DNA of 64,000 nt, taken from NCBI GenBank assembly GCA_049325335.1, contig JBMOMC010000002.1:192001-256000 (forward strand). Reading direction: 5' to 3'. A program made the position numbers and the translations under genes. Origin of the DNA: Nitrospirota bacterium. Lineage in GTDB: Bacteria; Nitrospirota; Nitrospiria; 2-01-FULL-66-17. A model generated the notes under the pieces. It ran no database searches. It was not told the origin of the DNA and was given only the letters and a program-made list of their open reading frames with translations. Below are positions 10,094-27,816 of the stretch, piece by piece (position 1 is the first letter of the stretch; each line of letters opens with the position of its first letter).

Positions 10094-12046
<1,953 letters not shown>

Positions 12047-12053
12047 CGCCGCG

Positions 12054-12115
12054 GTGGTTCGACAGGCTCACCACGAACGGAGCGACGCTCCGTCTGCCCT
12101 GAGCGCGTCGAAGGG
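12054..12115. repeat. Palindromic intergenic element (TTCGACAGGCTCA...TGAGC..GTCGAAGGG type)
   Basis: Imperfect long hairpin resembling a widespread REP-like family; single copy in the window. Confidence 0.6.
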
Positions 12116-12138
12116 CCGCCGCACACGAGGTCACTGAC

Positions 12139-12957
12139 ATGAATCAAACACGCGCGATAGCATCCACCCGCGAACGCGACATCACCCGGGCGATTGCCCG
12201 CGAATATTTTCGTCAGTTCGACGACATGATCGAATCCGACGCAATCATCGTCGGCTCCGGCCCGTCGGGTCTGGTGTGCGGACGCGATCTGGCGCTGGCG
12301 GGTTTTAAGGTCGTCATCGTCGAGCAGATGAATCATTTGGGCGGCGGGTTCTGGAACGGCGGGTATCTCATGACCAAAGCCACCATCGCGGCGCCGGCGC
12401 ACGCGATTCTCGAAGAAGTCGGCGCGCCGTGCCAGGAGGTGGGGCCCGACATGTACATCGTGGACCCGCCACACGCCACCGCGAAGTTGATCGGCGCGGC
12501 GTACGACGCGGGCGTGAAAGTGATGAACTTCACCAAGGTCGTGGACCTGGTTTACCGTGCCGATCGCCTCGAAGGCGTGGTCGTGAACTGGACCCCGCTG
12601 GAAATGGTGGGCCACGACGTGGCGCACGTGGATCCCATCGCGCTGGAATCGCGGGTGGTGGTGGACGCCACGGGCCACGACGCGGTGGCGGTGGAGATGC
12701 TCGCCAAACGAGGCCTTCATCAGCCCGTGCCCGGCAACGGCGCGATGTGGGTGGATCAGTCCGAAGAAATCGTGATCAACAAAACCGGGGAGGTGTACCC
12801 GAATCTGTTCCTGGTCGGCTTGTCGGTCGCGGCCGTGTACGGTACGCCCCGCATGGGCCCGGCGTTCGGCGCGATGTTGTTATCCGGCCGCAAGGGGGCG
12901 GGGCAAATTGCGGCGAAATTGGCTGCGCAGTCGGGCGTTCAATCCCACCGCGGGTAA
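12139..12957 (+). CDS. thi4: Thi4-family thiazole synthase, non-Cys (sulfide-dependent) type
   Basis: GSGPSG, GGGFWNGG, HVDP, DATGHD, PRMGP motifs. Confidence 0.9.
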   Translation: MNQTRAIASTRERDITRAIAREYFRQFDDMIESDAIIVGSGPSGLVCGRDLALAGFKVVIVEQMNHLGGGFWNGGYLMTKATIAAPAHAILEEVGAPCQEVGPDMYIVDPPHATAKLIGAAYDAGVKVMNFTKVVDLVYRADRLEGVVVNWTPLEMVGHDVAHVDPIALESRVVVDATGHDAVAVEMLAKRGLHQPVPGNGAMWVDQSEEIVINKTGEVYPNLFLVGLSVAAVYGTPRMGPAFGAMLLSGRKGAGQIAAKLAAQSGVQSHRG

Positions 12958-12966
12958 GTCCGAACC

Positions 12967-12991
12967 GGGGCGTACGGCCGTACGCCCCTAC
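12967..12991. repeat. REP-like palindrome
   Basis: GGGGCGTACGGCCGTACGCCCCTAC (GTAG-type on the minus strand). Confidence 0.8.
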
Positions 12992-13004
12992 GAAAATCGA
13001 AGAC

Positions 13005-13025
13005 GGACGTTTTGAGCAGCCAGCA
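13005..13025. repeat. Isolated end of the MITE-like repeat
   Basis: GGACGTTTTGAGCAGCC is identical to the right end of the 14643-14763 element. Confidence 0.6.
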
Positions 13026-13057
13026 GGGATTGTGGAGTTCTGAGGTTTTATGAACCT

Positions 13058-13086: not shown

Positions 13087-13824
13087 CTAGTTGGCCAAAC
13101 CGAAACCGAACGACGACGTCGCCCAATCACCGATCGCGGCAAACGAGTTGGTCATCAGCAGCAGCCCGATGACGATCAGCAACACCGCGGTGACTCGGGT
13201 GACCACCGGCATATACGGCGCGAGGCGGCGGTATGAGGTTAAAAATCGCTCCACCGCGATCGCGGAGAGAAACAGCGGAACGCCCAGTCCCAACGAGTAG
13301 GCGAGCAACAATGTGGCGCCGGCTTCGGTGGATTCGGTCGAGGCGGCCATGGTCAAAATGCCCGCGAGCACCGGTCCCACACAGGGGGTCCACCCCGCGG
13401 CAAAGATCATCCCGACCAGAAACGTGCCCAACATGCCCGCGGGCCGCGCGGAAAGGTGAACCCGCCGCTCGCGCGCGAGCCAGTGTAATGGAAGCCACCC
13501 GCCCACGTAGAGCCCGAACAACACCACCAACCCGCCGCCGATCATCCGGATAATGTGTTGGTAGTCGAGCAACCACTGGCCGAACGCGCTGGCGGACAAT
13601 CCCAAGAGCGCGAACATGGTGGAGAAGCCGGCGATAAAGAGGAGCGAGTTCACAATGGTCTTGGTGCGCACGCGCGCGGTGTGGCCCTGGGTGGTGAGCT
13701 CCTCGAACGAGAGTCCGGTGATATATCCCACGTAGGAGGGCACCAATGGCAATACGCAGGGCGACGCGAACGACAACAGCCCCCCGGAAAACGCCATGGC
13801 CAATGAAACCGATTGTCCGTCCAT
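13087..13824 (-). CDS. ccdA: Cytochrome c biogenesis protein CcdA
   Basis: SFASPCVLPL and AGWTPCVGP Cys motifs; about 6 TM. Confidence 0.92.
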   Translation of the reverse strand: MDGQSVSLAMAFSGGLLSFASPCVLPLVPSYVGYITGLSFEELTTQGHTARVRTKTIVNSLLFIAGFSTMFALLGLSASAFGQWLLDYQHIIRMIGGGLVVLFGLYVGGWLPLHWLARERRVHLSARPAGMLGTFLVGMIFAAGWTPCVGPVLAGILTMAASTESTEAGATLLLAYSLGLGVPLFLSAIAVERFLTSYRRLAPYMPVVTRVTAVLLIVIGLLLMTNSFAAIGDWATSSFGFGLAN

Positions 13825-13836
13825 TAGGAGCCTTTC

Positions 13837-14622
13837 TTAGAGCATGCCAAAGGCGTGGGCGCCCGAGAACACATAGTTCACGCCGATAAACGTGAACAAG
13901 GTCAGCGGCACGCCCACCACCATCCACACCGCGAACCGGCGCACATCCACCGAGCCGACGTGAAACGCCGCGGCGTAGTACAACCACGTGATCAACGCCC
14001 AGGTCTCTTTGGGATCCCAGGCCCAAAAACTGCCCCACACCGTGTACGCCCAGATCGCGCCCAAGACGATGCCGGCTGAAAACAACGGAAACCCCACGCG
14101 CAACAGTCGGCCGATCGACAATGCGTAGTCGTCGCTGTTGCCGCCGCGTCGCCGCGCGCACAATGCGCACGCGCCGGTGAGCCCGGCCACCAGAAACGCG
14201 GCGTAGCCCAATACAGTCACGGGCACGTGGATCTGAATCCAAATGCTGTTGAGCGAGGGTAACAACGGTTTGAGGTCCGCGCCGCCCGTGGCCTGCGCGT
14301 ATGCCAGCAGCCCGGCCAGCGGGGTCAGCACCACCAATGCGGTGGTGGCCACCACCCCCGGCAAGCGCCGTCCCACCCACAACATGAGCCCCACGCAAAA
14401 CACGGTCATCAACGCCACGGCTTCGAACAAGTTCGCGGACGGGAAGTGGCCGTACCCTTGGAGCCAACTCTCCCACGCGCGCATGGACAGGCCGCCCACT
14501 CCGAACAAGAACGTAAAACCCGCGATCGGAACCTGGATCGTTCGCAGCCGCGGGATGAAGGCCGACGCGGCCAGCGCCACGCAGCCGAACAACATCACGT
14601 TCAATAACCAGAGGTGGGTCAT
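13837..14622 (-). CDS. ccsA: Cytochrome c synthase CcsA/ResC (System II)
   Basis: WIQIHV; WWD motif WAYTVWGSFWAWDPKETW; C-terminal HAF; RBS before ATG 14622. Confidence 0.92.
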   Translation of the reverse strand: MTHLWLLNVMLFGCVALAASAFIPRLRTIQVPIAGFTFLFGVGGLSMRAWESWLQGYGHFPSANLFEAVALMTVFCVGLMLWVGRRLPGVVATTALVVLTPLAGLLAYAQATGGADLKPLLPSLNSIWIQIHVPVTVLGYAAFLVAGLTGACALCARRRGGNSDDYALSIGRLLRVGFPLFSAGIVLGAIWAYTVWGSFWAWDPKETWALITWLYYAAAFHVGSVDVRRFAVWMVVGVPLTLFTFIGVNYVFSGAHAFGML

Positions 14623-14642
14623 CGCGTCATCCTCCCTCCTGG

Positions 14643-14763
14643 GCAGGCTGCTGAAAACGTCCATCTGCGGCGTTCTCGGTCGTCGGAAATCCTCACGTAC
14701 GAGTTAGTACGCTCCGGTTTCCTCCTCCCTGCGGCCTTGCATCTGGGACGTTTTGAGCAGCCT
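14643..14763. mobile_element. MITE-like element between resB and ccsA
   Basis: Ends AGGCTGCTGAAAACGTCC / GGACGTTTTGAGCAGCCT; near-identical core at 27650-27816. Confidence 0.8.
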
Positions 14764-14793
14764 ATTAGCATCACCGTATCTGTCAGCGTCCTG

Positions 14794-16026
14794 TTAAAGT
14801 AGACCAACGGCAGCCCCTTCCCGTTCCCTGACCACCACAGGGGCTGAAGCCGCGGGCCGGGTAGTCTGCTCTCTATTGCCAGTCAGATCGAGTGCTTTAA
14901 TCGGCGGGCGCGCCCGCATCGGCGCGCCGGTGGTTGGCGGTTTCCAGAACGCCAGCATCCACGCCACGCCCAGCACCACCAGCGTGCCGGACGCGAGCAA
15001 GACCATCAACCCGGGATAATACCGAATCTGAAGCCCGATGGCCTTACGCGGGTCGATCGAGCTCACCGTCAAATATTCGGAAAACGGCAGGGCCAGGGCC
15101 GCGTCGCGATCCGCCAACACGTGCACGGATTCAAACTCGCGTCCGCCCACGGGCCGGTAATCCACCACGTGTGACGCGGACTCATAACTCATCACCTCAT
15201 ACACACGGCCGTCGCGTCCCGTCACCTGGTACACAATGGCCCGGCCCACGTCGCGATCCCCGTCCGGCGTGCGGCGCGTGGCGTGCTCCTCGATGGTCAG
15301 CAACGAGATGGCGCCGGAAGTCGGCGCCTCGATGGTGCCACCCACCTCACCGGTATACGTCACCGACTGCATGGGGTCGGCAATCGAGCGGATACGGCCT
15401 TCCACGCGCGTCCCCACGAACCCAAACCGAAACAAGGAGAAACGATACCCGCGATAATCCAGCGGCGCCCCGACCCCTACGGCGGATGATCTGACCACCA
15501 TGTCACCTTCGGTCAGTTCCACACCGCCCACGAACTGTTTGACCTCGCCGGTTTCATAGTGCTCGGTGTTGAACGCGGTGGCCCGGACCGTGAACGGTAA
15601 GGTCAAGCGCCGCCCGTCATCGAGCCGCGCTTCGCGGCTCTCCGCGCCGATGGGCAATTCCATCACCGCTTCGACCGATCCGGACTTGGCGTAGCCGAAC
15701 GCGGCGATCAACACGACCAACCCGCCGTGCAGCACAAAAAATGCGCCGTGCGGCGTCTTCACCAGCAACCGCGCCAATTCACGCCGCGGGCGCTCGCCGG
15801 CGTGAGCCGCTTGTGCCACCATCACGGCCCGTTGAATCAGACTCATGGCCAACACAACGAGCAGGAGTGCAAACAATCCCCGTTCAACCATCACCACGCC
15901 GGTGAACACCCAGCGCGGCCAATCGGCCGGAAGGATCACTTCCACGCCAATGGCCGCCCCGAGCAGGGCCAGGAGCATCAGCCCCTGGCGCATGGTGGCT
16001 CGGTAGGTGAGCGGCGCAATACGCAT
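14794..16026 (-). CDS. resB: Cytochrome c biogenesis protein ResB/Ccs1-like
   Basis: LHGGL TM His, FNTEHYETGEVKQF, PLDYRGYRF, GLQIRYYPG; lies before ccsA. Confidence 0.8.
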   Translation of the reverse strand: MRIAPLTYRATMRQGLMLLALLGAAIGVEVILPADWPRWVFTGVVMVERGLFALLLVVLAMSLIQRAVMVAQAAHAGERPRRELARLLVKTPHGAFFVLHGGLVVLIAAFGYAKSGSVEAVMELPIGAESREARLDDGRRLTLPFTVRATAFNTEHYETGEVKQFVGGVELTEGDMVVRSSAVGVGAPLDYRGYRFSLFRFGFVGTRVEGRIRSIADPMQSVTYTGEVGGTIEAPTSGAISLLTIEEHATRRTPDGDRDVGRAIVYQVTGRDGRVYEVMSYESASHVVDYRPVGGREFESVHVLADRDAALALPFSEYLTVSSIDPRKAIGLQIRYYPGLMVLLASGTLVVLGVAWMLAFWKPPTTGAPMRARPPIKALDLTGNREQTTRPAASAPVVVREREGAAVGLL

Positions 16027-16028
16027 TG

Positions 16029-17045
16029 TTAGTGACCTTCCGGTCCCGCAGCGCCTTCTTGAATCCAACGCAAGAGTGTCTGATAGTCCCGGTCGTTCCG
16101 GCTCGTGGCGATCTTTCCGCCACCGTGGGATGTTTCAGGACCGAGCATTTTAGCCAGTAAGAGGCTATCCTCCGGATGATCGAGGTTGATCAACGGACGT
16201 CCGCTGATTCCGTGCCGAGGGAGCCCGGTTGCTTTGTCGATCACGGAGTCGTATTCAACGAGATCGAACTCGGCGGTGTAATCGTATTTTGTACCGGCGG
16301 CCTTGAGATCATCCGCGAGGAGCCGCTCCGCATTCGTCGGCGCGTGGCACGGGAGACACTTGGCACCGAAGATCGGTAAGACATCCCGATTAAACGAGAC
16401 TTTGCTGTTGGTATCCGACGGCAATGGCGCTTTGGGAGCCGCGGACCACGACCCTGCCCACATCGCGCCACGCCACACGAACGGCGTATGGTGCTGGTTA
16501 CACGAGCCGCTGGTCATCGTCACCATTGGCAACACCGTTCCATCCACCCCTAGGATCCAGGTTTTGTATGTGCGGGCCTTGGGGGTAGCGGTGCTGTTGG
16601 GATCCTCTGCGATAGGGGTTTGTGTCATGAAGTTGCCCGCGGCATTGGTGGTCATCGAAATTACATGACCCGCACCGTCGAGTAAGACGACTTCGGCGCC
16701 TGCGAGTGGTTCAGACCCGAGAAGGTCTTTGTAGACCGTTCCCGCCATCGTGAATGGGACCACGGCTGCCTTGGCGTTCGCCGTGTGGCACCTCAGACAG
16801 TCTTTCCCTTGGTAATGAAATTCGTTTGAGCCCTGCGTGTTATTTCCCTTCGCTTTATAGTTGTCGAACCCTACTCCGTTCGGCCGGTCGGGGACCGCCG
16901 CCACCGCCATATCCGAGGGTGTAAAGAGGGTCTGTAAGGCGACGGGCTCTTCCTCCCGTTGTTGAACGTCTCCTTCGGAGCTCGAAGCACATGCCGTGCA
17001 CAGCCAGATCAGGGCGAGGGCTGCAAGATAGTTGTTGCGTCGCAT
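16029..17045 (-). CDS. Lipoprotein c-type cytochrome (2 canonical and 1 variant heme motif)
   Basis: Lipoprotein-type signal (CTAC); CLRCH, CNQHH, CLPCH; C-terminal planctomycete-cytochrome-like VSFNRDVLPIF...WIQEGA. Confidence 0.8.
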   Translation of the reverse strand: MRRNNYLAALALIWLCTACASSSEGDVQQREEEPVALQTLFTPSDMAVAAVPDRPNGVGFDNYKAKGNNTQGSNEFHYQGKDCLRCHTANAKAAVVPFTMAGTVYKDLLGSEPLAGAEVVLLDGAGHVISMTTNAAGNFMTQTPIAEDPNSTATPKARTYKTWILGVDGTVLPMVTMTSGSCNQHHTPFVWRGAMWAGSWSAAPKAPLPSDTNSKVSFNRDVLPIFGAKCLPCHAPTNAERLLADDLKAAGTKYDYTAEFDLVEYDSVIDKATGLPRHGISGRPLINLDHPEDSLLLAKMLGPETSHGGGKIATSRNDRDYQTLLRWIQEGAAGPEGH

Positions 17046-17056
17046 GAACGTCCTCC

Positions 17057-18793
17057 TTACGGCTGGAACGACTGGATCACCGCCGCCCCGCTGTTGTCGT
17101 TGGAATTGGTGCCCGGCACGTCCGTAACCGTATCGACGGCGGTGGGGTCGCGATCCGGTACGCCTACGACCAAATCGGGAAGTGTCGATGAGGTCAAGTC
17201 ACCGGCCGCCAACGCCTGCCCCATTCGATCGTTGCCCCGTCCCATGAGTTCAACCCAGTCGTCATTGGCATCTTTGACGAGAATGTCATCGCCATGTGTT
17301 TCAATTTTCCACGCGAGGCTGGTCGGAAGATTGGTGTTGGTCAGGGCGCCCGGCGTGGGTTGCAGCACATTCGCTCCCGAGACGACATACACCCTTCCGG
17401 CGATGATCGAACCGAGGAGGACTCCATCCGCCCATGGCGCGCCCACCGCAAAATCAGGAACATCGTCGCCGTTGAGATCGTCGAGATTCACGGCGGAAGT
17501 TCCAAATTTATCCTGCAGTTTTTCTCCGGAAATAGCCGCCAGCGCGACCTTGGTCAGTTTGTTAATGCTGGTGATACTGGTGTGGTCGAAGGGCGTGAAC
17601 TTCGCCGAATTCAGAAGGTTTCCGTCGACGATGTACAGCCCGCCGGCCGTGATGGTATCTACTCGCACAAACGAGCTATTGGGCCCAGTGCGGCCCGGCA
17701 TCGTGATCTCGCGCCAGCCGTCTCCGTTCAGATCGCCAATCAGCGCCGGCGTCCCCTCTCCCAATGAACTCGTGCCGTCTCCAGTGATTGCGACCCGGGG
17801 TTCTCCAAATCCAACCGGATCTCCGTCCGGAAGGGGATCTTCGCTCCAACTCGTAAAGAAGGCGGACCCTGGGCGGGTGTGCCCGCCGGCTCCGGCTCCA
17901 GACGCCCAGATCATCAGATCGTCCTGTGTATCGGTTGTCATGGGATCTTGGATCTTATCGAGATTACCCAGGTTGAGTAAGCTGATACCGTAGAACGCCA
18001 GGTAACCTTCTCCGGGAGTGAGTTCGACCATCAGTTCGTGCTCAGGATCTGTTGCGAGCGCGTCAAGATGTTCAGCAATGGCCGAACCAGTAATAAGCGA
18101 CACGGCGCCGGTCATCTGGCCGTCTTCGGGGTGCATCCCCTCTTCCACGTGGCCGTGACCAGCGGTATACCAGGGCGACCCCACCACGATGTCTTGGAGG
18201 TCGTCACCGTCAAAGTCTCCAACTTCAATTGCCCTCCCGAAATGCTCGCGGTATTGCGTTCCGCAGGCTTCGACCGTGGCCTCATGAGCCTCAATGACAC
18301 CCGGCATGATCGGTCCTTCGAATATGTAGACGCACCCCGATCGATAACTGTCGTGCCCGGAGGCGAACATTGCCGAGACAATGACATCCGGCGAGCCGTT
18401 GCCGACCACGTTCGCAACCTTGATCGCGGTTCCAAACCGATCGTCGGGGTCTTCGCCATGGATAATGGTGGAGGGAGTGGAGCCCAAGCCACCGGGATCG
18501 CCGGTGTAGATCAAGACCCGCCCTTTTGGTCCGCTGGGTTCAGCACTCGCCGTGTTTTGGTTGGCTCCGTCGGTATGCGGAGCACCGGCATCGTACGCCG
18601 GAGCGCCGACGAGTAAATCTTGCACCGAGTCCCCAGTGACGTCGGCCACTGCGACCGCGTACCCTGCTCGGCCTTGTGGGTCTGGACCCTGGAGGAATAT
18701 GGCTGGGAGCATGGTCAGCGCCCATGCGGTGCCGGCTGCAAGGCCGACGATCGCGGCGCCCAGGCCCAGGTGTGTGGTGGTACGAGTCTTCAT
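17057..18793 (-). CDS. Secreted FG-GAP (integrin-alpha-like) beta-propeller protein
   Basis: Signal peptide; about 6-7 repeats FG...DxxGDxxxDxxVGAP. Confidence 0.85.
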   Translation of the reverse strand: MKTRTTTHLGLGAAIVGLAAGTAWALTMLPAIFLQGPDPQGRAGYAVAVADVTGDSVQDLLVGAPAYDAGAPHTDGANQNTASAEPSGPKGRVLIYTGDPGGLGSTPSTIIHGEDPDDRFGTAIKVANVVGNGSPDVIVSAMFASGHDSYRSGCVYIFEGPIMPGVIEAHEATVEACGTQYREHFGRAIEVGDFDGDDLQDIVVGSPWYTAGHGHVEEGMHPEDGQMTGAVSLITGSAIAEHLDALATDPEHELMVELTPGEGYLAFYGISLLNLGNLDKIQDPMTTDTQDDLMIWASGAGAGGHTRPGSAFFTSWSEDPLPDGDPVGFGEPRVAITGDGTSSLGEGTPALIGDLNGDGWREITMPGRTGPNSSFVRVDTITAGGLYIVDGNLLNSAKFTPFDHTSITSINKLTKVALAAISGEKLQDKFGTSAVNLDDLNGDDVPDFAVGAPWADGVLLGSIIAGRVYVVSGANVLQPTPGALTNTNLPTSLAWKIETHGDDILVKDANDDWVELMGRGNDRMGQALAAGDLTSSTLPDLVVGVPDRDPTAVDTVTDVPGTNSNDNSGAAVIQSFQP

Positions 18794-18861
18794 TGCATTC
18801 TCCTCTGAGTTGGCTTCCAGACCACCTTGCTCGGCGTTTTCTTCACTTTCGGTCCTCGCGG

Positions 18862-19296
18862 TCAAAAGATCCGTCCGGTGGTGTCAGGATCTGTCACATC
18901 AATTGGTACGTGGCACGTGTTGCAGGGTGCGCGGTCCGGCATGGGGTGCGGCCCGCTGCTGGGTCCGGATCCCACCCGGAAAAGGTAATCGCCCGAATAG
19001 GTTCCCATGCTCCAGAAATTGGCCTGCTCGTCGGCCACAATGCCGACCTCAGGGCCGCTGGGCGGGGTGACCCAGAGGGTGGCACCCGGCACGCGCGCGC
19101 TGCCAGCCAAGCCGTCGTATACCGTGCCCCCGATCGTAAAGCCGGCGTGGCACGCGGATTGTGTACAGTTCGGGCCGACCATATGAATGGCGGTCAGTTC
19201 GGCGTTGAACGAGTTCTGATCGCCGCAGCCGACCAATGCCACGGCCATGATCAGGCCGGCGGTTCCAAGTCCTAGTCGTCTTGTCATGGTCTCCAT
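18862..19296 (-). CDS. Small diheme lipoprotein cytochrome c
   Basis: Lipobox LVGC; CTQSACH (CX4CH) and CNTCH; FTIGGTVY shared with 16029-17045. Confidence 0.8.
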   Translation of the reverse strand: METMTRRLGLGTAGLIMAVALVGCGDQNSFNAELTAIHMVGPNCTQSACHAGFTIGGTVYDGLAGSARVPGATLWVTPPSGPEVGIVADEQANFWSMGTYSGDYLFRVGSGPSSGPHPMPDRAPCNTCHVPIDVTDPDTTGRIF

Positions 19297-19298
19297 CG

Positions 19299-20498
19299 CT
19301 AAAACCTCGTCATGAGGCCGACTTCAATGACCTTGGCGTTCAAGCCGGGCCGCTGTTCGTAGGCATCGATTTTGGCGTTAAATTCGGTCCGGTCGAACCA
19401 TGGGAGTTGCCAGGCCGAGGTGCTGACCTTGATCCCGTAGAGATGGGCTCGGAACGGACGCAGTTTGCCGTCGATGGTCTTGAATCCCGCGGCCGGATCC
19501 GGGCTGACGACCCAGAAGTCCGCGCCGGATTGGTCGTACCAACGGTATTCCAGCCGCCCGACCCAGAAGTCGCCGAAGTATTGATACCAGGACGCCCCGG
19601 CGGTGTGGGATGAGATACCCCACGTGTCGCGGTAGTAGCGGTAATGGGTGTGTAGGGCCGAGCGGCTTTCAAAATACCGGATTAGCCGTCCCACCATGGC
19701 CGCGCGTTGTCGCTCGGTCGGGTGGACCTCTTCGGACCAGGTGCCGTCTGAATTGGTCACGATGTTCTCCGGGTGCGCCAGGTAGCCTTGCTGACGAGCC
19801 CAGTACACGTTGCCTTGGGCCACCATCTTGGGCGAGAGCACTTGCGCCACGGTGACCACCACCGCATCCAGCGATACATCTTGCGGGAACGGCCGGGTGT
19901 CCGCGATCTTGAGCGTGTCGATCTCGTCGCGGTTGATGGTGTAGGCCAAGCCGAGCGTGGTGTTGCGCTCGAAAAATTCGCGTTGTACGGAGAGGGTCGC
20001 GAAGTCGGAATTGTAGTTGGGCTCCCGACTCACCCCGCCGCTGATGCCGAAGACGTTCACGCCAGACGTGTACGTGGCGCCCAAGCCGCCTTCGTGGCGG
20101 TACTCCCATTGCGTGGCCGGGGTGGCGCCGGTCACGCCGTCCACGCGCCACGTGGCGGACGTGACCCCATCCACCCCGTAGTGCGCGTTGACCTCCACGC
20201 GTTCCGTCACACCCTGTTTGTACGTGACCAAGGTCTGCGGGGTCGTGTTGCCTTCGGACGCCCCGAAAAAGATGCTCTGGTTGTCGGAAAAGTAACTGTA
20301 CTTAATGACCAATTGCGCCTGCGGAACCGACTGGGCGAACGCAGGCGCGGGGGACAGAAACAGTATGGTTGTGAGGAACAGGAGCGTTCCAGATGACAGG
20401 AGTCTTCCGGTCCGGTTGACGGTCGGCACGTTCCGTGTCGGTTCGGGCGCACAGCCGTGCGCCCGCCCAGCGGACCTATGGCGACTAATTGCAGCCAC
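19299..20498 (-). CDS. DUF3570-family outer-membrane beta-barrel
   Basis: VDGVTSAT/VDGVTGAT, SREPNY, YRYYRDTWGISSHT, C-terminal Phe; follows DUF4266; start uncertain. Confidence 0.85.
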   Translation of the reverse strand: MAAISRHRSAGRAHGCAPEPTRNVPTVNRTGRLLSSGTLLFLTTILFLSPAPAFAQSVPQAQLVIKYSYFSDNQSIFFGASEGNTTPQTLVTYKQGVTERVEVNAHYGVDGVTSATWRVDGVTGATPATQWEYRHEGGLGATYTSGVNVFGISGGVSREPNYNSDFATLSVQREFFERNTTLGLAYTINRDEIDTLKIADTRPFPQDVSLDAVVVTVAQVLSPKMVAQGNVYWARQQGYLAHPENIVTNSDGTWSEEVHPTERQRAAMVGRLIRYFESRSALHTHYRYYRDTWGISSHTAGASWYQYFGDFWVGRLEYRWYDQSGADFWVVSPDPAAGFKTIDGKLRPFRAHLYGIKVSTSAWQLPWFDRTEFNAKIDAYEQRPGLNAKVIEVGLMTRF

Positions 20499-20703
20499 AG
20501 CCGCCTCCTCCTCCCCCATACCCCCCGACGCTCCCTTCTCGCGTGCCGAGCACGTGCTGGCGCATGGTGTTTTCTTCCGGGTCAGGGTCCATTTGCATAA
20601 TCGGGTCGGCCAAATACTCGCGTTCATATGGCGAGACCCGCGCGCAGCCCACGGTGGACAATGCGCCGAGCAAGAGCGCAAGAACAACCAGACGTCGTGT
20701 CAT
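20485..20703 (-). CDS. DUF4266-family small lipoprotein
   Basis: VGC lipobox, VSPYERE.LA, REGS.GG.GGGGGGCGCN terminus. Confidence 0.9.
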   Translation of the reverse strand: MTRRLVVLALLLGALSTVGCARVSPYEREYLADPIMQMDPDPEENTMRQHVLGTREGSVGGYGGGGGGCGCN

Positions 20704-21221
20704 GGCGTGGGGCCCTCCGCCAGCAATTTGGTGATCTCCTCGCGATAGGCGGCGAGGTAGCTTTTTTGGTACCCAAGGTGGACGAACCGCACCATGCCCT
20801 TCTGGTCGATCACGTAGGCGGTTGGCATGGCGCGCGGTTTGTATCGGTCCGCGATGGAGCGGTCCTGATCATGGACCACGGTGAACGTGACCGGGTGTTT
20901 GGCCACGAATTCCAGGGCGTTTTCGCGCTTACGGTCCACGGAGACCGCCACGATTTCGACGCCTCGGTCGCGGAACTCCTTGTACATGGCTTCAAACTCC
21001 GGGAATTCCTCGCGGCAGGGCTCGCACCAGCTCGCCCAAAAGTCCATCAGCAACACTTTGCCCTTCAGGTCGGCGAGCGCTACCGGCTGCCCCGCGAGGG
21101 TCTTGGCCTCGAAGAGGGGGGCGGCGCGCCCCACATCGGCGCGCTCGGCCCGCGCGGGCGCGGCCGCGAGCACCACCACGGCGATGACAGCGATCAACAG
21201 TGCGCGTAATCGGTCCGTCAT
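20700..21221 (-). CDS. TlpA/ResA-family thiol-disulfide oxidoreductase
   Basis: DFWASWCEPC, MPT; signal peptide. Confidence 0.92.
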   Translation of the reverse strand: MTDRLRALLIAVIAVVVLAAAPARAERADVGRAAPLFEAKTLAGQPVALADLKGKVLLMDFWASWCEPCREEFPEFEAMYKEFRDRGVEIVAVSVDRKRENALEFVAKHPVTFTVVHDQDRSIADRYKPRAMPTAYVIDQKGMVRFVHLGYQKSYLAAYREEITKLLAEGPTP

Positions 21222-22261
21222 AACGTGAAGCTCACTTTCTCCTTCAGCGCCGGCGAAACGTGGAGGCCTCCGGTGTCGTCGATGAAAATGCCTTGCAGGT
21301 TCTGCGCGTGCAGCACTTCGAGTCCTCGTGCCGGGCCCAACACGAACGCGCCGGTGGCCAGCGCATCGGCGCGCGCGCCGGTTCCCGAAATCACGGTCAC
21401 GCTGCGCGTTTTACGCGCCGGGCTCAGGGTGTCCGGGTCCAGGATATGGTGGTACCGAATGCCGTTTTCAAAGAACATGCGTTCGTAGTCGCCGGAGGTG
21501 GAAATCGCGGTATCGGTCAGATCCAGCGTGGCCAGGAACCCGTCTTGGCGCCGGGGGTGCCGCACGCCGATTCGCCAGGGCGTGCCGTCGGGCCGGGCGC
21601 CGAACACGATGATGTCTCCCGCAGCCGCGATGAGTCCGCCGGACATGCCGTGCGCGGTCAACACCTGTTTGGCGCGCTCAGTCAACGCGCCTTTGCCGAT
21701 CCCGCCTGGATCGAGCTTCATGCCGGTGTGGGTCAAGAACGCCGCGCTCGCGGATTTGTCGATCTGCACGCGTCCGCCGTGCACCAGGGGACGGAGCGCA
21801 GACAACTCCTGCTTATCCGGCACGTGGCGTTTGCCCAGCACGTCCCAGGCCGAAATCGCGGGGCCCAACGCCATGTGGAATCCGCCATTGGTCAGTTGGG
21901 TCATGGCCAACCCGTCTTCCAGCACGTCGATCGTGGCCGGGCTGACCGTCACCGGCCGCTTACCCGCAGCCTGGTTGAGCCGAGACATTTCGCTGGACGG
22001 GTTGTAGATCGACAGCAACTGCTCCAACCGCTCCATTTCTGCAAACGCCGCGTTGAGCGCCCGGTCCGCGTCGGTTTCTCGTTCTGCGACCACGGTCAAA
22101 CTCACCGGGATCCCGCCCATCATGGTGCGCGTCTGTTTGAACAGACCCAGGTTGCTCGCACCAGACTGCTCGGCGGCCAACAGGCGTGATGGACGCCCGA
22201 TGGTCAGACTCACGAGACTCAACCCCACGAGCTGTAACAGGTCTCGTCGGTCGATCGACAT
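21218..22261 (-). CDS. apbE: FAD:protein FMN transferase with Tat signal
   Basis: RRDLL Tat motif; LDPGGIGKG, STSGDYER, RYHHILDP, ADALATG. Confidence 0.93.
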   Translation of the reverse strand: MSIDRRDLLQLVGLSLVSLTIGRPSRLLAAEQSGASNLGLFKQTRTMMGGIPVSLTVVAERETDADRALNAAFAEMERLEQLLSIYNPSSEMSRLNQAAGKRPVTVSPATIDVLEDGLAMTQLTNGGFHMALGPAISAWDVLGKRHVPDKQELSALRPLVHGGRVQIDKSASAAFLTHTGMKLDPGGIGKGALTERAKQVLTAHGMSGGLIAAAGDIIVFGARPDGTPWRIGVRHPRRQDGFLATLDLTDTAISTSGDYERMFFENGIRYHHILDPDTLSPARKTRSVTVISGTGARADALATGAFVLGPARGLEVLHAQNLQGIFIDDTGGLHVSPALKEKVSFTL

Positions 22262-22380
22262 AGACACTCCTTCCCTGGCGGCGGATGCCGCATGTATGAA
22301 AGTGCGCCCCGGCCCACACACGGGGTTGGCACGATAACTACGTTAGGAAACGAAAGCCGAAAACGACTGGAACGGAAGAA

Positions 22381-22740
22381 CTACAGGACGGGCGGAGCTC
22401 GGGACGGGGTGATGCGTACTCGGTTGGAAACCGTTAACGTGAAGTCGTCAACCGCAACATGGGCGGTCGGCGCTAGGACCGGAAGCGGCGCTGAGGCATG
22501 GGCGTTGACCGTGACCGACCCGCTGTGGTTGGCCACCAGGCAGTGTATCTTATGGTCCGTGGTGGCTCGATCAGACGAGGAGGAATGGTCGCCATGTTCG
22601 GCGTGCGACGGTGTAAGATATTGACAATGAATGGTTTCTCCAGCGAGCGCGACATAGGCCAGAATGAGGGCCGCGAACGTGAAGCGGATTACTCCTGAGG
22701 AACAACGCCAAAACATCAGCCGATGGATGGAGTGATTCAT
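22381..22740 (-). CDS. DUF2946/CruR-like leader protein ending in RAPP
   Basis: N-terminal hydrophobic helix, Cys/His-rich middle, C-terminal SRAPPVL. Confidence 0.7.
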   Translation of the reverse strand: MNHSIHRLMFWRCSSGVIRFTFAALILAYVALAGETIHCQYLTPSHAEHGDHSSSSDRATTDHKIHCLVANHSGSVTVNAHASAPLPVLAPTAHVAVDDFTLTVSNRVRITPSRAPPVL

Positions 22741-22779: not shown

Positions 22780-25700
22780 CTAGTCAGCCCGGAAGTATTT
22801 GGCCTCAGGATGGTGAAAGACGAGTGCTGAGACCGAGGCTTCAGGGTCCATCATATCCCCGTCTGTCAGCTCAATGCAAATGTCTTGTGGCCTGATGAGC
22901 GAGAAGAGCTTGCGCTGATCTGCCAAGTTCGGGCACGCGGGGTAGCCGAAGCTCACGCGGATGCCCTGGTATTTGTTCTTGAGCACGTCGTGAATCGTCG
23001 TGGTCGGCGGGTCGGGGAAGCCCCACGTTGTTCGCAACCGGCGGTGCAACCACTCGGCCATGCCTTCGGCGGCTTCGACCGCAATGGCTTGCAGCGCGTG
23101 CGAGCGCAGGTATTCGCCCGCGTCTTTCCAGCGTTGCGACAGCTCGCGCACGCCCACTCCGCAGGTGACCGCGAAGAGGGCGATGGCGTCGCGCTCGTTC
23201 GATCCGGCGTCCCGCACATAGTCGGCCAGACATAAGCGTTCGCCCGCGGCTTGTCGGGGAAAGTGAAATCGTTCGATCGCGCGGTCCGGCGTCGCCGGGT
23301 CATAGATGATCACGTCGTCGCCGTCAGCTTGGCAGGGGAAGAAACGCCACACCGCGTGGGCGGACAGGAGCTTGTGCTCCATGATCTCGCGCTTCAAGGC
23401 TTCCACCGTGTCGTGGAGCTTGATCGCTTTTTCGTCCTTGTCCGCGAGCAACTTGTCGATCTGGCCGCGCAGCCCGAGGTGTTTGCCGTACAACATGATC
23501 GGGTTGATATAGGCGAAGATTTCGCCCAGCGGCGCGTCGCGGATCACGTGACGCTCGAAGTCGGGAGCCGGGGACAGCGGCGCGTCGCGCCGCACCGCTG
23601 AGCGGGTCGCAACCGGGGCGGACGGCGAGGCAACAGGTTTGGGCGTGGCCGCGCCCCGGACCAAGGACTGTTGCTCCTCGCGGATGCGCGCGATGAGGGC
23701 CTGTCGTTCTTGTTCGTCGGTCAGGCGGTTGGCGAGGTCCAGTCCGCTCATGGCGTCCTTGGCGTAGAGCACGATTCCGGGATACTCCGGCGCGATCTTG
23801 GTGGCGGTGAACTTGTTCGACAATGCGGCGCCGCCCACGAGGATCGGCACGTCGATGCCCGCGGCGCGCAGGTCCTGCGCGGTGATGACCATCTGCTGGG
23901 CCGACTTGACCAGCAGCCCGGAGAGCCCGATCGCGTCCGGCTTCTCGCGCCGGTACGCGTCGATTAGGACTTCCGGCGCCACTTTGATGCCCAGGTTCAC
24001 GATATGATAACCGTTGTTGCCCAGAATGATTTCCACGAGGTTTTTGCCGATGTCGTGAACGTCGCCCTTGACCGTCGCAAGCAGGATCTTGGCCTTGGAC
24101 GTGGTCTCGGATTTTTCCATGAACTGTTCAAGGTGCCGCACCGCGGCCTTCATGGCCTCGGCGCTCTGCAGCACTTCGGCGACGATCAACTCGTTGTTGT
24201 TGAAGAGGCGTCCCACCTGATCCATTCCGGCCATCAGCGGGCCGTTGATGATGTCCAGCGGCGCGCGCGTGGTGAGGGCTTCGTCGAGATCAGCCACCAA
24301 CCCGTCGCGCGACCCTTCCACGATGTACCGCGCCAAACGATCGTCCAGGGGCAAGTCCGCCGCGGCGGTTCGGACCTTGGTCTGTTTGCCTTTGAAGTGC
24401 GCGGCAAACGCGGCGACCGGATCGTCACCGCGCCAGAAGATCAAATCCTCCGCCAACCGACGTTCGTCCTCGGGAATCGACGGGTACCGCTCTAAACGTT
24501 CGGCGTTCACGATCGCCAAATCAAGCCCGGCCTTGACGTTGTGGTACAGGTACACCGCGTTTAAGACCTCGCGGCCTGCGGGCGGGAGGCCGAACGAGAC
24601 GTTGCTGACCCCGAGAATGGTTTTGGTGTCGGGGAGCGCGGCCTTGATCAGCTTGATGCCCTCGATGGTTTCGATCGCGGAGCCGATGTAGTTCGCGTCG
24701 CCGGTGCCGACCGGAAAAACCAGCGCGTCGAAGATGATGTCGCGCGGGGGGAGGCCGTACTTCTTCACCAGCAAATCGTATGAGCGTTTGGCGATGTCCA
24801 ATTTTCTCTGGCGCGTGACCCCCATGCCTTGTTGCGGGTCCTCGTCGATGCAGCCCACCACCACCGCGCCGCCGTAGCGTTTGATCAAGGGCACGACGTG
24901 TTCGAACCGTTCCTCGCCGTCTTCCAGATTGATCGAATTGATGATGCACTTGCCTTGGCAACGTTTGAGCGCGGCCTCGATGACGATGTGGTCGGTGGAG
25001 TCGATCATCAACGGCAGTTTGGTCTTTTTCGTCAAGACATGGATGAAGGCCTCCATGTCGGCCAGTTCGTTGCGGTCGGGGTTGGCCATACACACGTCCA
25101 AGATCTGCGCGCCGTTCTTGGCCTGGGCGCGACCGATTTCTCCGGCTTCTTCGATCTTGCCGTCGATGATCATCTCTTTGAACTTGCGGCTGCCGATGAC
25201 GTTGGTGCGCTCGCCTACGATGAGCGGCCGGTTGTCGTCTTCGATCGGCACGAAGTCAACGCCGGACACCGCGGGTTTGAGCGCGTGTTGCGGCGTGCGC
25301 GGGCGTTTGCCATGCACCATCGCGACGATCGCGGCGATGTGCGCGGGCGTGGTGCCGCAGCACCCGCCGATGATGTTGATCCAGCCCTCGTCCACGAAGC
25401 GGGAGAGTTTGGCGGCCAGACTTTGGGGCGTTTCCGCGTAGCGACCTTCTTCGTCCGGCAACCCCGCGTTGGGGTAGACCGAGACGAAACACGTGGCCAG
25501 GCCGGCGAGCGAACGCACGTGGTCGGTCATGAACTCGGGGCCGGTGGCGCAGTTCAGCCCGATCGAAAACAGGTTGAGGTGTTCGAGCGACGTGTAGAGG
25601 GCCTCGACCCCTTGGCCCGCCAGCATAGTGCCCATGGGCTCGATCGTACCCGACACCATCAACGGCACTCGTGAGCCCAACGCCTGCTGCGCGGCCGCGA

Positions 25701-26241
25701 TGCCGATGGCCGCGGCCTTGAGGTTGAGCGTGTCCTGCGCGGTTTCCAACAACAGGAGATCTACGCCGCCTTCGATCAACCCCTTGGCCTGGATCGTGAA
25801 CGATTCGATCAACTGGTCGAACGTGACCCCGCCCGTGACCGTGATGGTCTTGGTCGTGGGTCCCATCGAGCCCGCCACGAATCGCGGCTTGTCCGTCGTT
25901 GATCGCGTGTCCGCCACTCTGCGCGCGAGCGCGGCGCTGGCACGGCTGATCTCCAGCGCCTTATCGGCCAAGCCGTATTCCGCGAGCACGAGCGGCGTGC
26001 TCCCGAACGTGTTGGTCTCGATGATGTCCGCGCCCGCGTCGAAATACGCTTCGAACACGCTGGAGATCACGTCGGGCCGCGTTAGATTGAGATGTTCGTT
26101 GCACCCCTCGTATTCCGGCCCGCCGAAGTCGGCCGCGGTCAGATTCTTGGTCTGCAACACGGTGCCCATGGCGCCGTCCAGCACCAGGATGCGGCGGCCG
26201 AGCAGGGCGCGTAATTGATCAGCGGAGTCACGGATAGTCAT
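22780..26241 (-). CDS. metH: Cobalamin-dependent methionine synthase
   Basis: LDGAMGT, GGCCGT, GERTN, DVHDIGKN, FGYPACP. Confidence 0.97.
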   Translation of the reverse strand: MTIRDSADQLRALLGRRILVLDGAMGTVLQTKNLTAADFGGPEYEGCNEHLNLTRPDVISSVFEAYFDAGADIIETNTFGSTPLVLAEYGLADKALEISRASAALARRVADTRSTTDKPRFVAGSMGPTTKTITVTGGVTFDQLIESFTIQAKGLIEGGVDLLLLETAQDTLNLKAAAIGIAAAQQALGSRVPLMVSGTIEPMGTMLAGQGVEALYTSLEHLNLFSIGLNCATGPEFMTDHVRSLAGLATCFVSVYPNAGLPDEEGRYAETPQSLAAKLSRFVDEGWINIIGGCCGTTPAHIAAIVAMVHGKRPRTPQHALKPAVSGVDFVPIEDDNRPLIVGERTNVIGSRKFKEMIIDGKIEEAGEIGRAQAKNGAQILDVCMANPDRNELADMEAFIHVLTKKTKLPLMIDSTDHIVIEAALKRCQGKCIINSINLEDGEERFEHVVPLIKRYGGAVVVGCIDEDPQQGMGVTRQRKLDIAKRSYDLLVKKYGLPPRDIIFDALVFPVGTGDANYIGSAIETIEGIKLIKAALPDTKTILGVSNVSFGLPPAGREVLNAVYLYHNVKAGLDLAIVNAERLERYPSIPEDERRLAEDLIFWRGDDPVAAFAAHFKGKQTKVRTAAADLPLDDRLARYIVEGSRDGLVADLDEALTTRAPLDIINGPLMAGMDQVGRLFNNNELIVAEVLQSAEAMKAAVRHLEQFMEKSETTSKAKILLATVKGDVHDIGKNLVEIILGNNGYHIVNLGIKVAPEVLIDAYRREKPDAIGLSGLLVKSAQQMVITAQDLRAAGIDVPILVGGAALSNKFTATKIAPEYPGIVLYAKDAMSGLDLANRLTDEQERQALIARIREEQQSLVRGAATPKPVASPSAPVATRSAVRRDAPLSPAPDFERHVIRDAPLGEIFAYINPIMLYGKHLGLRGQIDKLLADKDEKAIKLHDTVEALKREIMEHKLLSAHAVWRFFPCQADGDDVIIYDPATPDRAIERFHFPRQAAGERLCLADYVRDAGSNERDAIALFAVTCGVGVRELSQRWKDAGEYLRSHALQAIAVEAAEGMAEWLHRRLRTTWGFPDPPTTTIHDVLKNKYQGIRVSFGYPACPNLADQRKLFSLIRPQDICIELTDGDMMDPEASVSALVFHHPEAKYFRAD

Positions 26242-27314: not shown

Positions 27315-27650
27315 ATGAGTGAGATCGAACAGAAGGTGGCGGTTGCGGCGAACGATGATTGCAGCGTGGCGGATTCGGGGGACGCGCCGCCCTTGGTCGT
27401 GGTGTACGATATGAAGGGCAGCGAAGTGGTGTTCCGCACGATCCGGTACTACGACAACAGCCTCATTGAAGCGGTGAATGACTGCAAAATGGTCATCGGC
27501 AAATCGTTCGGGGACGCCATCAAGACGGACCTGGCATCGCGCGGGATTGAGACCCGCGTGACCACCCTGGACTCATCCGACGACGCCGTGGGCCAGGTGT
27601 TCGGGATCAAGCGGGGCGACACGAAGGTGGAGATGAAGATCCAGCATTAG
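27315..27650 (+). CDS. NifB/NifX-like family small protein
   Basis: KVAVA...VVYD...DCKMVIGKSFG...LASRGIE pattern. Confidence 0.6.
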   Translation: MSEIEQKVAVAANDDCSVADSGDAPPLVVVYDMKGSEVVFRTIRYYDNSLIEAVNDCKMVIGKSFGDAIKTDLASRGIETRVTTLDSSDDAVGQVFGIKRGDTKVEMKIQH

Positions 27651-27816
27651 CAGGCTGCTGAAAAAGCCCATCTGCGGCGTGCTCGGTCGTCGGAAATCCT
27701 CACGTACGACCCAGTACGCTTCGGTTTCCTCCTCCCTGCGGCCTTGCGACCCACCGTCGAAACTCAAATGCCGGAAGTCCCCGAAGGGGGCATCTGGGGC
27801 TTTTTGAACAGCCTGC
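27650..27816. mobile_element. MITE-like element with 44-bp internal insert
   Basis: Ends GCAGGCTGCTGAAAAAG / CTTTTTGAACAGCCTGC; core matches 14643-14763. Confidence 0.8.

Follow-up and report, generated by a model that had tools for sequence, protein, structure and literature searches.

A flavin-barrel and cytochrome operon headed by a CruR-like leader in a Nitrospirota bacterium: a possible metal-regulated reducing station of the outer membrane

Gene clusters encoding DsbD, a thioredoxin-like protein, DUF4266, the flavin transferase ApbE and DUF3570 were described as 'DsbD systems' by Méheust et al. 2021 (eLife, PMC8238504); flavinylation at two motifs was shown there only for the DUF3570 protein of Chlorobium luteolum, electron flow from DsbD was proposed, and the function was left open. 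All five components (ApbE, TlpA, DUF4266, DUF3570 and CcdA) were found in a single operon of a Nitrospirota bacterium, at positions 13087–22740 on the minus strand of a stretch of 64,000 nucleotides (nt), hereafter the window (NCBI GenBank assembly GCA_049325335.1, contig JBMOMC010000002.1, positions 192,001–256,000). The exported ApbE, the C-terminal CXC and the proposed electron flow are shared as well, and of two flavinylation-type motifs one is strict and one a variant. The locus differs in its additional genes, namely a DUF2946 leader, two heme lipoproteins (cytA and cytB), an FG-GAP propeller and ResB/CcsA; in a first motif that reads TSAT; in the position of ccdA, six genes from DUF3570 and beyond the five-gene range of that study; and in a thioredoxin that matches PF00578, PF08534 and PF13905, not the PF13899 of the paper. 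What this locus adds to a known but unsolved flavin system is the link to the leader and a cytochrome with a CxxHH motif, and the operon is tentatively read here as a metal-regulated reducing station of the outer membrane.

The leader belongs beside two described DUF2946 proteins. With CruR (Bp2923) of Bordetella pertussis, the ribosome stalls at a RAPP motif, copper is sensed via a CxxC 45 residues upstream, and the uptake operon is closed by Rho-dependent termination (PMC9426467); the ribosome arrest was demonstrated (PMC12992588). CutF of Rhodobacter capsulatus is copper-induced and turns detoxification on, the opposite direction to CruR. The leader studied here shares with them its place as first gene, an export-type N-terminus, the C-terminal RAPP, a cysteine 46 residues upstream of it and a long spacer (PMC9426467; PMC12992588; 10.1101/2025.02.05.636593). 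It differs from CruR in having His-Cys pairs and not CxxC, and the arrest and copper response shown for CruR are candidate properties of the present leader. The genes that follow are also different, a flavin barrel and cytochromes in place of a TonB-dependent transporter or a multicopper oxidase.

All eleven open reading frames were confirmed on the minus strand, in the order given in the preliminary description of this DNA. Domains were assigned with Pfam above the family cut-off and with NCBIfam models; ApbE, AhpC-TSA/Redoxin, DUF4266, DUF3570, FG-GAP, ResB, Cytochrom_C_asm, DsbD_TM and DUF2946 passed the Pfam cut-off, and for cytA and cytB no Pfam or NCBIfam family did. The results are computational throughout: gene content, motifs, conservation and a second cytochrome maturation system were read from the sequences, and barrel and plug have the status of predictions. 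Gaps between genes, counted from likely starts and stops, were -4 to 68 nt, with two exceptions: the leader is followed by 119 nt, and resB and ccsA are separated by 171 nt. Two metagenomic loci (L034 and L036) contain the leader together with the ten further genes at 44–81% identity, so the eleven-gene order is not due to chance, and the operon is conserved in relatives. Partial repeats comprised six genes in L035, the front half up to the contig ends in L092 and L101, and the resB-ccsA-ccdA tail in L166; the named relatives of the locus were Nitrospiria. No sigma-70-like promoter was found for the operon, and terminator-like sites numbered 14 in the region against 9.0 ± 3.1 in shuffles, a count that carries no information. 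A horizontal-island signature in base composition was rejected, the G+C content of the operon (58–64%) giving no clear signal against its surroundings (about 62%).

The leader (22381–22740, 119 amino acids), which the preliminary description had missed as such, matched DUF2946 (PF11162). It consisted of a hydrophobic N-terminal segment, judged as an export signal by hydropathy alone, a His-rich middle part with two His-Cys pairs, and a RAPP motif three residues from the C-terminus; Cys67, in HCLVANH, is the cysteine 46 residues upstream of RAPP. Because CxxC is absent, the leader is regarded as CruR-like and not as a CruR orthologue. The spacer that follows (22262–22380, minus strand) is C-rich and G-poor at its start and is a candidate control site of the Rho or hairpin type. 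A hairpin in which the RAPP region pairs with the apbE ribosome-binding site was predicted with a probability of about 0.45, and the long C-rich spacer is closer to the CruR arrangement than to a fixed hairpin that covers this site.

Leaders of related operons were compared after selection by position and tail motif (18, and 15 after near-duplicates were dropped). A cysteine 45–48 residues before xPP was present in 15/15, against a mean of 1.8 and a maximum of 8 in 5000 shuffles; this interval corresponds to the C90/C93 positions of CruR and was fixed after the spacings had been seen. Within the genome, 2/414 hydrophobic small open reading frames fitted the strict leader pattern, and a relaxed pattern retrieved three, one of them noise. 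The two other plausible leaders of the genome head operons with a barrel-like gene and ZnuA, of the ZnuA uptake type; both are RGPP-tailed (L169:13145-13534 on C1 and L170:2145-2597 on C6) and each stands before the barrel-like gene and ZnuA. A complete leader headed the FG-GAP/cytB operon in nine of 11 genomes, one of the remaining two being cut by a contig end and the other untestable, and in L038 a divergent twin leader headed SCO1 and NosL. As a CruR-like RAPP protein, the leader suggests a role in metal homeostasis and not in respiration.

Leaders of this type were also seen in tandem. RAPP-type leaders stood in tandem in L109 (Candidatus Manganitrophus sp.), L060, L063 and L150; in L109 a leader-headed ZnuABC/MerC-like operon directly preceded a leader-headed apbE-tlpA-DUF4266-propeller-DUF3570-ccdA operon, the latter also with a spermidine-synthase-like membrane protein. 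Unnamed barrel proteins of 340–390 amino acids with an N-terminal Cys cluster occurred in L039–L049, L060 and L063, usually directly behind the leader. One of them had a weak Phenol_MetA_deg match, and the type is a candidate metal channel.

The flavin core begins with ApbE (21218–22261; PF02424, E 7e-77), which has a twin-arginine signal, followed by an exported TlpA/ResA-like thioredoxin with WCEPC (20700–21221; ResA model 131 bits, below the cut-off of 170), the DUF4266 lipoprotein (20485–20703; Pfam) and the DUF3570 outer-membrane protein (19299–20429; PF12094); CcdA (13087–13824; DsbD transmembrane domain, PF02683), the second copy of the genome, closes the operon. The C-terminal CGC that had been noticed in DUF4266 is real: its Gly-rich tail ends in GCGCN. 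Two flavinylation-type motifs were located in DUF3570 (20121–20171), DGVTSAT and DGVTGAT. Set against the [S/T]GA[S/T] pattern, one is a strict TGAT, and the other is TSAT, a variant; variants are common in the family, and the second acceptor column was Ser/Thr in 61/62 aligned rows. The AlphaFold2 model of DUF3570, built from 62 sequences, was a 16-strand barrel with a predicted local distance difference test score (pLDDT) of 90 and a predicted template modelling score of 0.84. No close solved relative of this barrel was found, the structure matches being generic porins with ≤11% identity. In outer-membrane barrels a C-terminal Phe marks the periplasmic side, and since the barrel ends in Phe, its long loops were placed outside. 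Both flavin motifs fall in loop 2, predicted to be extracellular and modelled without order.

Co-folding placed DUF4266 inside the lumen of DUF3570 with a score of 0.91, the best control reaching 0.00; the mark applied was reached by 116/157 solved pairs and by 2/215 mismatched pairs. Runs shared at least 87% of contacts, and the partner pLDDT was at least 73. In the model, residues 16–17 of DUF4266 touch the periplasmic strand ends, residues 36–39 the outer strand ends, and the tail (46–51) lies in the interface; the invariant residues of the protein are Met17, His31, Cys50 and Cys52 (mature numbering). From the remaining barrel contacts (55, 79, 81, 100–111 and 132–136) the tail would lie close to the flavin loop at its base. 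Fifteen of the 28 barrel positions conserved in ≥90% of rows fall among the 71 interface residues, out of 344. The plug model supports proximity of thiol and flavin. The chain CcdA > thioredoxin > DUF4266 > flavin is supported; it was already proposed in print (PMC8238504). Barrel and plug were absent from the portion of Méheust 2021 consulted; that of Haft 2023 refers to the gene neighbourhood and no more, and the 2024 follow-up to Méheust 2021 models other substrates. In the literature searches on DUF3570/DUF4266, the Méheust cluster spreadsheet excepted, no published description of the DUF3570 barrel, plug, cytochromes or leader was found.

The two cytochromes are related to each other. The lipoprotein cytA (18862–19296) has one diheme domain, in which the first motif, CX4CH, is invariant and the second is CxxCH, with invariant His38 and His117. 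The lipoprotein cytB (16029–17045) joins a diheme domain to a C-terminal His-ligated heme domain; it has two CxxCH and a one-cysteine CxxHH, the latter conserved as the second motif of the diheme domain. Heme motifs had been reported for both proteins, rightly, and their form is refined here. Two canonical-type hemes are expected in each. The N-terminal domain of cytB matched cytA (hhalign 97.4%), and the common order is His, heme motif, transthyretin-like sandwich and second heme motif. The C-terminal domain of cytB matched the last heme domain of an HzsA-like protein in the second DUF3570 cluster of the genome (hhalign 97.2%) and resembled, weakly, PccH, the C-terminus of HzsA and FoxE (for FoxE/PccH, Z 6.9, root-mean-square deviation 3.0, 101 aligned, E 0.059 and 0.0014). 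Foldseek gave no cytB match at E 0.001 or better, and the best VIA-align Z for cytB was ≤8.0, to a common sandwich; together these do not establish a new fold. In the ESM Atlas the cytB domain fell in unnamed clusters and the propeller in generic FG-GAP clusters. The diheme-domain profile retrieved 744 clusters at E ≤1e-10, some covering the sandwich part alone, and close relatives, self counted, were 22 for cytB and 13 for cytA.

The FG-GAP repeat beta-propeller (17057–18793) has a cleavable-type signal, and its gene stood upstream of cytB in 11/11 genomes. Many cytB relatives are without a lipobox, and their FG-GAP partners often have one; for this reason FG-GAP and cytB fit a periplasmic pair with one anchor, and the surface location first assigned to the cytochromes was not upheld. 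The FG-GAP gene was split in L043 and cytB in L045 and L046, by frameshift or assembly error.

Besides the thioredoxin and CcdA, the operon encodes ResB (CcsB; 14794–16026; Pfam), the System II heme lyase subunit, and CcsA (13837–14622; TIGR03144 148.5 bits, below the cut-off of 187.6), with WWD motif and His ligands intact. The full four-gene System II set (ResB, CcsA, ResA-like thioredoxin and CcdA) thus stands beside cytochromes with CX4CH and CxxHH, the NCBIfam CcsB and ResA models scoring below cut-off. It differs from the usual System II in being the second maturation system of a System I genome: a Ccm cluster with its own ccdA is located at C1:280-289 kb (CcmC, CcmE and CcmF confirmed), and the operon ResB is the only ResB of the genome. 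That resB, ccsA and ccdA are housekeeping copies merely adjacent to the operon, a possibility raised at the outset, is ruled out by the Ccm cluster and the ccdA elsewhere. With the operon ResB as query, matches were obtained in 2/61 relatives, this genome included, and ResB was found in 0/3 same-genus genomes. Five cytB genomes in which resB is not linked to the operon were tested; four have ResB elsewhere and one has CcmE, so cytB tends to occur with System II. Lyases dedicated to atypical motifs are known (Wolinella NrfI and CcsA1, PMC6976685), and by analogy ResB/CcsA may be dedicated to CX4CH and CxxHH, simple co-transfer being as possible.

The 171-nt gap between resB and ccsA contains a dispersed inverted-repeat element (14643–14777, strand unassigned), of which 40 BLAST pieces, 12 of them ≥100 nt, were found in the genome. 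It is not part of the system, the resB/ccsA junction being tight in relatives. Similar sequence occurs after ccdA near 12990–13030 and near 27650–27700. The insertion could influence expression of ccsA and ccdA.

To describe the distribution, 401 genomes of the phylum were searched; the cytB profile matched 16, comprising this one, 11 others strongly and four weakly, and DUF3570 was above cut-off in 28. The operon cytochromes were found in 0/3 same-genus genomes. Within the 11 strong genomes, a second barrel type preceded FG-GAP/cytB in nine, an FtrD-like gene followed in seven (one checked with Pfam, the others assigned by BLAST clustering), and DUF3570 was present in the cytB operon in two. 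A genome scan with a narrow DUF4266 alignment (broad DUF3570/DUF4266 alignments were too diverse) covered 38 of 64 parts and yielded 124 confirmed loci, of which the best 80 were analysed; many of these run into a contig end and are interrelated. Co-oriented neighbours in these 80 loci were DUF3570 (76), TlpA (65), ApbE (51), HzsA-like proteins (21), the diheme domain (9), CcdA/DsbD (5), FG-GAP (1) and ResB/CcsA (0). At 43/80 loci a gene with CxxCH was present no more than 5 kb away, against 130/1000 genes of this genome, an imperfect control. On these neighbour counts and this proximity of heme motifs, the rule is a flavin core with variable heme cargo, the full set being limited to close relatives, and a fixed eleven-gene system across bacteria was rejected on the FG-GAP and ResB/CcsA counts.

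Diheme domain and DUF3570 occur together in several separate lineages, each with its own gene order (the present one; family f15, with L043 and L044; family f30, with L052, L076, L077 and L079; and seven Myxococcota-type or deltaproteobacterial loci). In L054, a locus from the same genus, a similar leader and apbE-tlpA-DUF4266 are combined with different cargo. The second DUF3570 cluster of the genome (L001, C2:80-94 kb, outside the window) contains an HzsA-like triheme protein, SH3/barrel proteins, tlpA, DUF4266, DUF3570 and apbE and continues with TPR proteins, MotA/ExbB, two ExbD and a TonB-C-like protein. Roughly one in four of the surveyed DUF4266 loci belonged to this type. In L085, L105, L107, L118, L119 and L122 a cytochrome b561-DHC fusion, DUF1924 and another diheme protein preceded tlpA-DUF4266-DUF3570-apbE, and an RND efflux set followed.

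The preferred reading, put forward tentatively and at somewhat below an even chance, is that the operon is a metal-regulated outer-membrane reducing station that frees or takes up a scarce trace metal. By analogy with CruR, metal shortage would make the ribosome stall at the leader RAPP and the operon would be expressed. Electrons would pass from CcdA to TlpA, and ApbE would attach flavin mononucleotide (FMN) to loop 2 of DUF3570, activities established for these families. DUF4266 is predicted to plug the barrel with its lipid anchor periplasmic and its CGC tail near the flavin loop. As a swinging arm, this tail may carry two electrons from TlpA to FMN, which would pass single electrons to Fe(III), Cu(II) or an oxide holding other metals. 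Matured by ResB/CcsA, cytA and FG-GAP/cytB would probably serve in the periplasm as one-electron partners, either handling the metal or buffering electrons. Neighbouring genes point to Fe, Cu and Zn/Mn as candidate metals; the VIT1 iron transporter was reported in 25 DUF3570 clusters (Méheust 2021, PMC8238504).

Several observations weigh against the reducing station. In the plug model the lumen is filled and the CGC tail sits in its outer half, access of periplasmic TlpA would need movement, and the confident contacts do not include Cys52. TlpA and CcdA may have no task other than heme attachment, the model of cytB is of middling quality (pLDDT 67), and the operon is without an inner-membrane metal transporter gene. 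As to the leader, it has no CxxC metal motif, Cys67 being single with the second His-Cys pair upstream; its Pfam score is marginal (24.3 against 23.7 bits), and the leaders of two close relatives, L034 and L054, gave no Pfam match. DUF2946 leaders act in both directions, as CruR and CutF illustrate, and the other leaders of the genome point to uptake of the Zn/Mn type, Zn not being redox active. Such a leader accompanies 6/80 DUF4266 loci, and metal control is therefore not a general property of the DUF4266 family.

A more specific form has a small chance of being right: DUF3570-DUF4266 would be a TonB-independent redox metal gate, in which covalent flavins at the outer mouth reduce Cu(II) or Fe(III) and the invariant CXC, His and Met of the plug pass the reduced ion inward to a periplasmic propeller-cytochrome whose CxxHH, once a heme site, has become a Cys-His3 metal site, with the His-Cys ribosome-stalling sensor as the switch.

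The best surviving rival, itself rather unlikely, is a periplasmic heme enzyme for a small sulfur or nitrogen compound, FG-GAP and cytB being a split analogue of hydrazine-synthase-alpha-like proteins. The barrel would deliver or pre-reduce the substrate, the CGC tail would act as a carrier arm like that of SoxY, and TlpA/CcdA would serve mainly heme maturation. It draws on the match of the cytB C-terminal domain to the HzsA-like protein, on the 21 DUF4266 loci with such proteins and on the conserved CxxHH, which together with His59 may bind a metal without heme. Genes of the ExtKL family lie in or beside cytB operons in 3/11 genomes, and a Geobacter multiheme selenoprotein, probably identical with ExtKL, was reported as a polysulfide reductase (PMC13510729). 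However, only the C-terminal domain is shared with hydrazine synthase alpha, no window protein matches PF18582, and cytA reached only 9% probability with the middle domain of HzsA; among the matches listed in a literature search, nothing relevant on hydrazine-synthase homologues outside anammox appeared. The enzyme also leaves the metal-type leader and the FtrD-like neighbours (7/11 genomes) unexplained.

Metal detoxification is unlikely. The leader would be CutF-like, excess metal would turn the operon on, and the metal would undergo a redox change in the envelope. The copper induction of CutF agrees with this, as do the CxxxC of the related leaders in L060 and L063 and the HMA and Metal_resist genes near some DUF3570 loci; but the other two leaders of the genome head uptake operons, the long C-rich spacer looks more like that of CruR than like a fixed hairpin covering the ribosome-binding site, and the operon is without an efflux gene.

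The initial proposal, in which electrons are conducted from CcdA to cytochromes on the surface for mineral redox and the propeller is a scaffold or adhesin, is now quite unlikely. Heme-motif genes near 43/80 DUF4266 loci and the predicted outward-facing flavin sites are in its favour, and FoxE, which the cytB C-terminal domain resembles together with PccH, is likewise paired with a propeller. FoxEYZ of Rhodobacter ferrooxidans SW2 consists of the all-helical diheme FoxE, the PQQ-type propeller FoxY and the DMT transporter FoxZ, whereas here the propeller is FG-GAP, only one domain is FoxE-like, its distal ligand is His and not Met, a transthyretin-like heme domain is added, and the operon has no DMT gene. 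In MtrAB-type conduits a multiheme cytochrome fills a large barrel. Here the barrel alone is shared: it has 16 strands, its lumen is predicted to be filled by the non-heme DUF4266, and no multiheme chain is encoded. The plug model thus offers no heme path across the membrane, and a heme wire through the barrel is not supported. Only two canonical-type hemes per cytochrome, the missing lipid anchor in many cytB relatives and the failure to find the operon cytochromes in any of the three same-genus genomes argue against the conduit too, and a thioredoxin-fed path would suit low flux.

That two independently mobile modules, the flavin barrel and the propeller-cytochrome part with Ccs, merely share a leader and have no joint function is very unlikely: 9/11 genomes have FG-GAP/cytB without DUF3570 in the operon and L054 combines a similar leader and apbE-tlpA-DUF4266 with other cargo, but diheme domain and DUF3570 occur together in separate lineages with differing gene order.

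Of the flanking genes, thiC and thi4 (10115–12957, plus strand) converge on the end of the operon, and metH (22780–26241, minus strand) precedes the leader, likewise in L034 and L036; no functional link was seen for either.

The domain common to cytA and cytB represents a sizeable unnamed heme-domain family, and the predicted lipoprotein plug offers a structure on which a route from thiol to flavin across the outer membrane can be tested. Because enzymes for attaching both flavin and heme are encoded within it, the operon can be expressed as a unit in a laboratory strain. For DUF3570 flavinylation, whose role was left open in 2021, the CruR-like leader of this complete, self-contained operon is a direct handle for finding the metal that would switch it.

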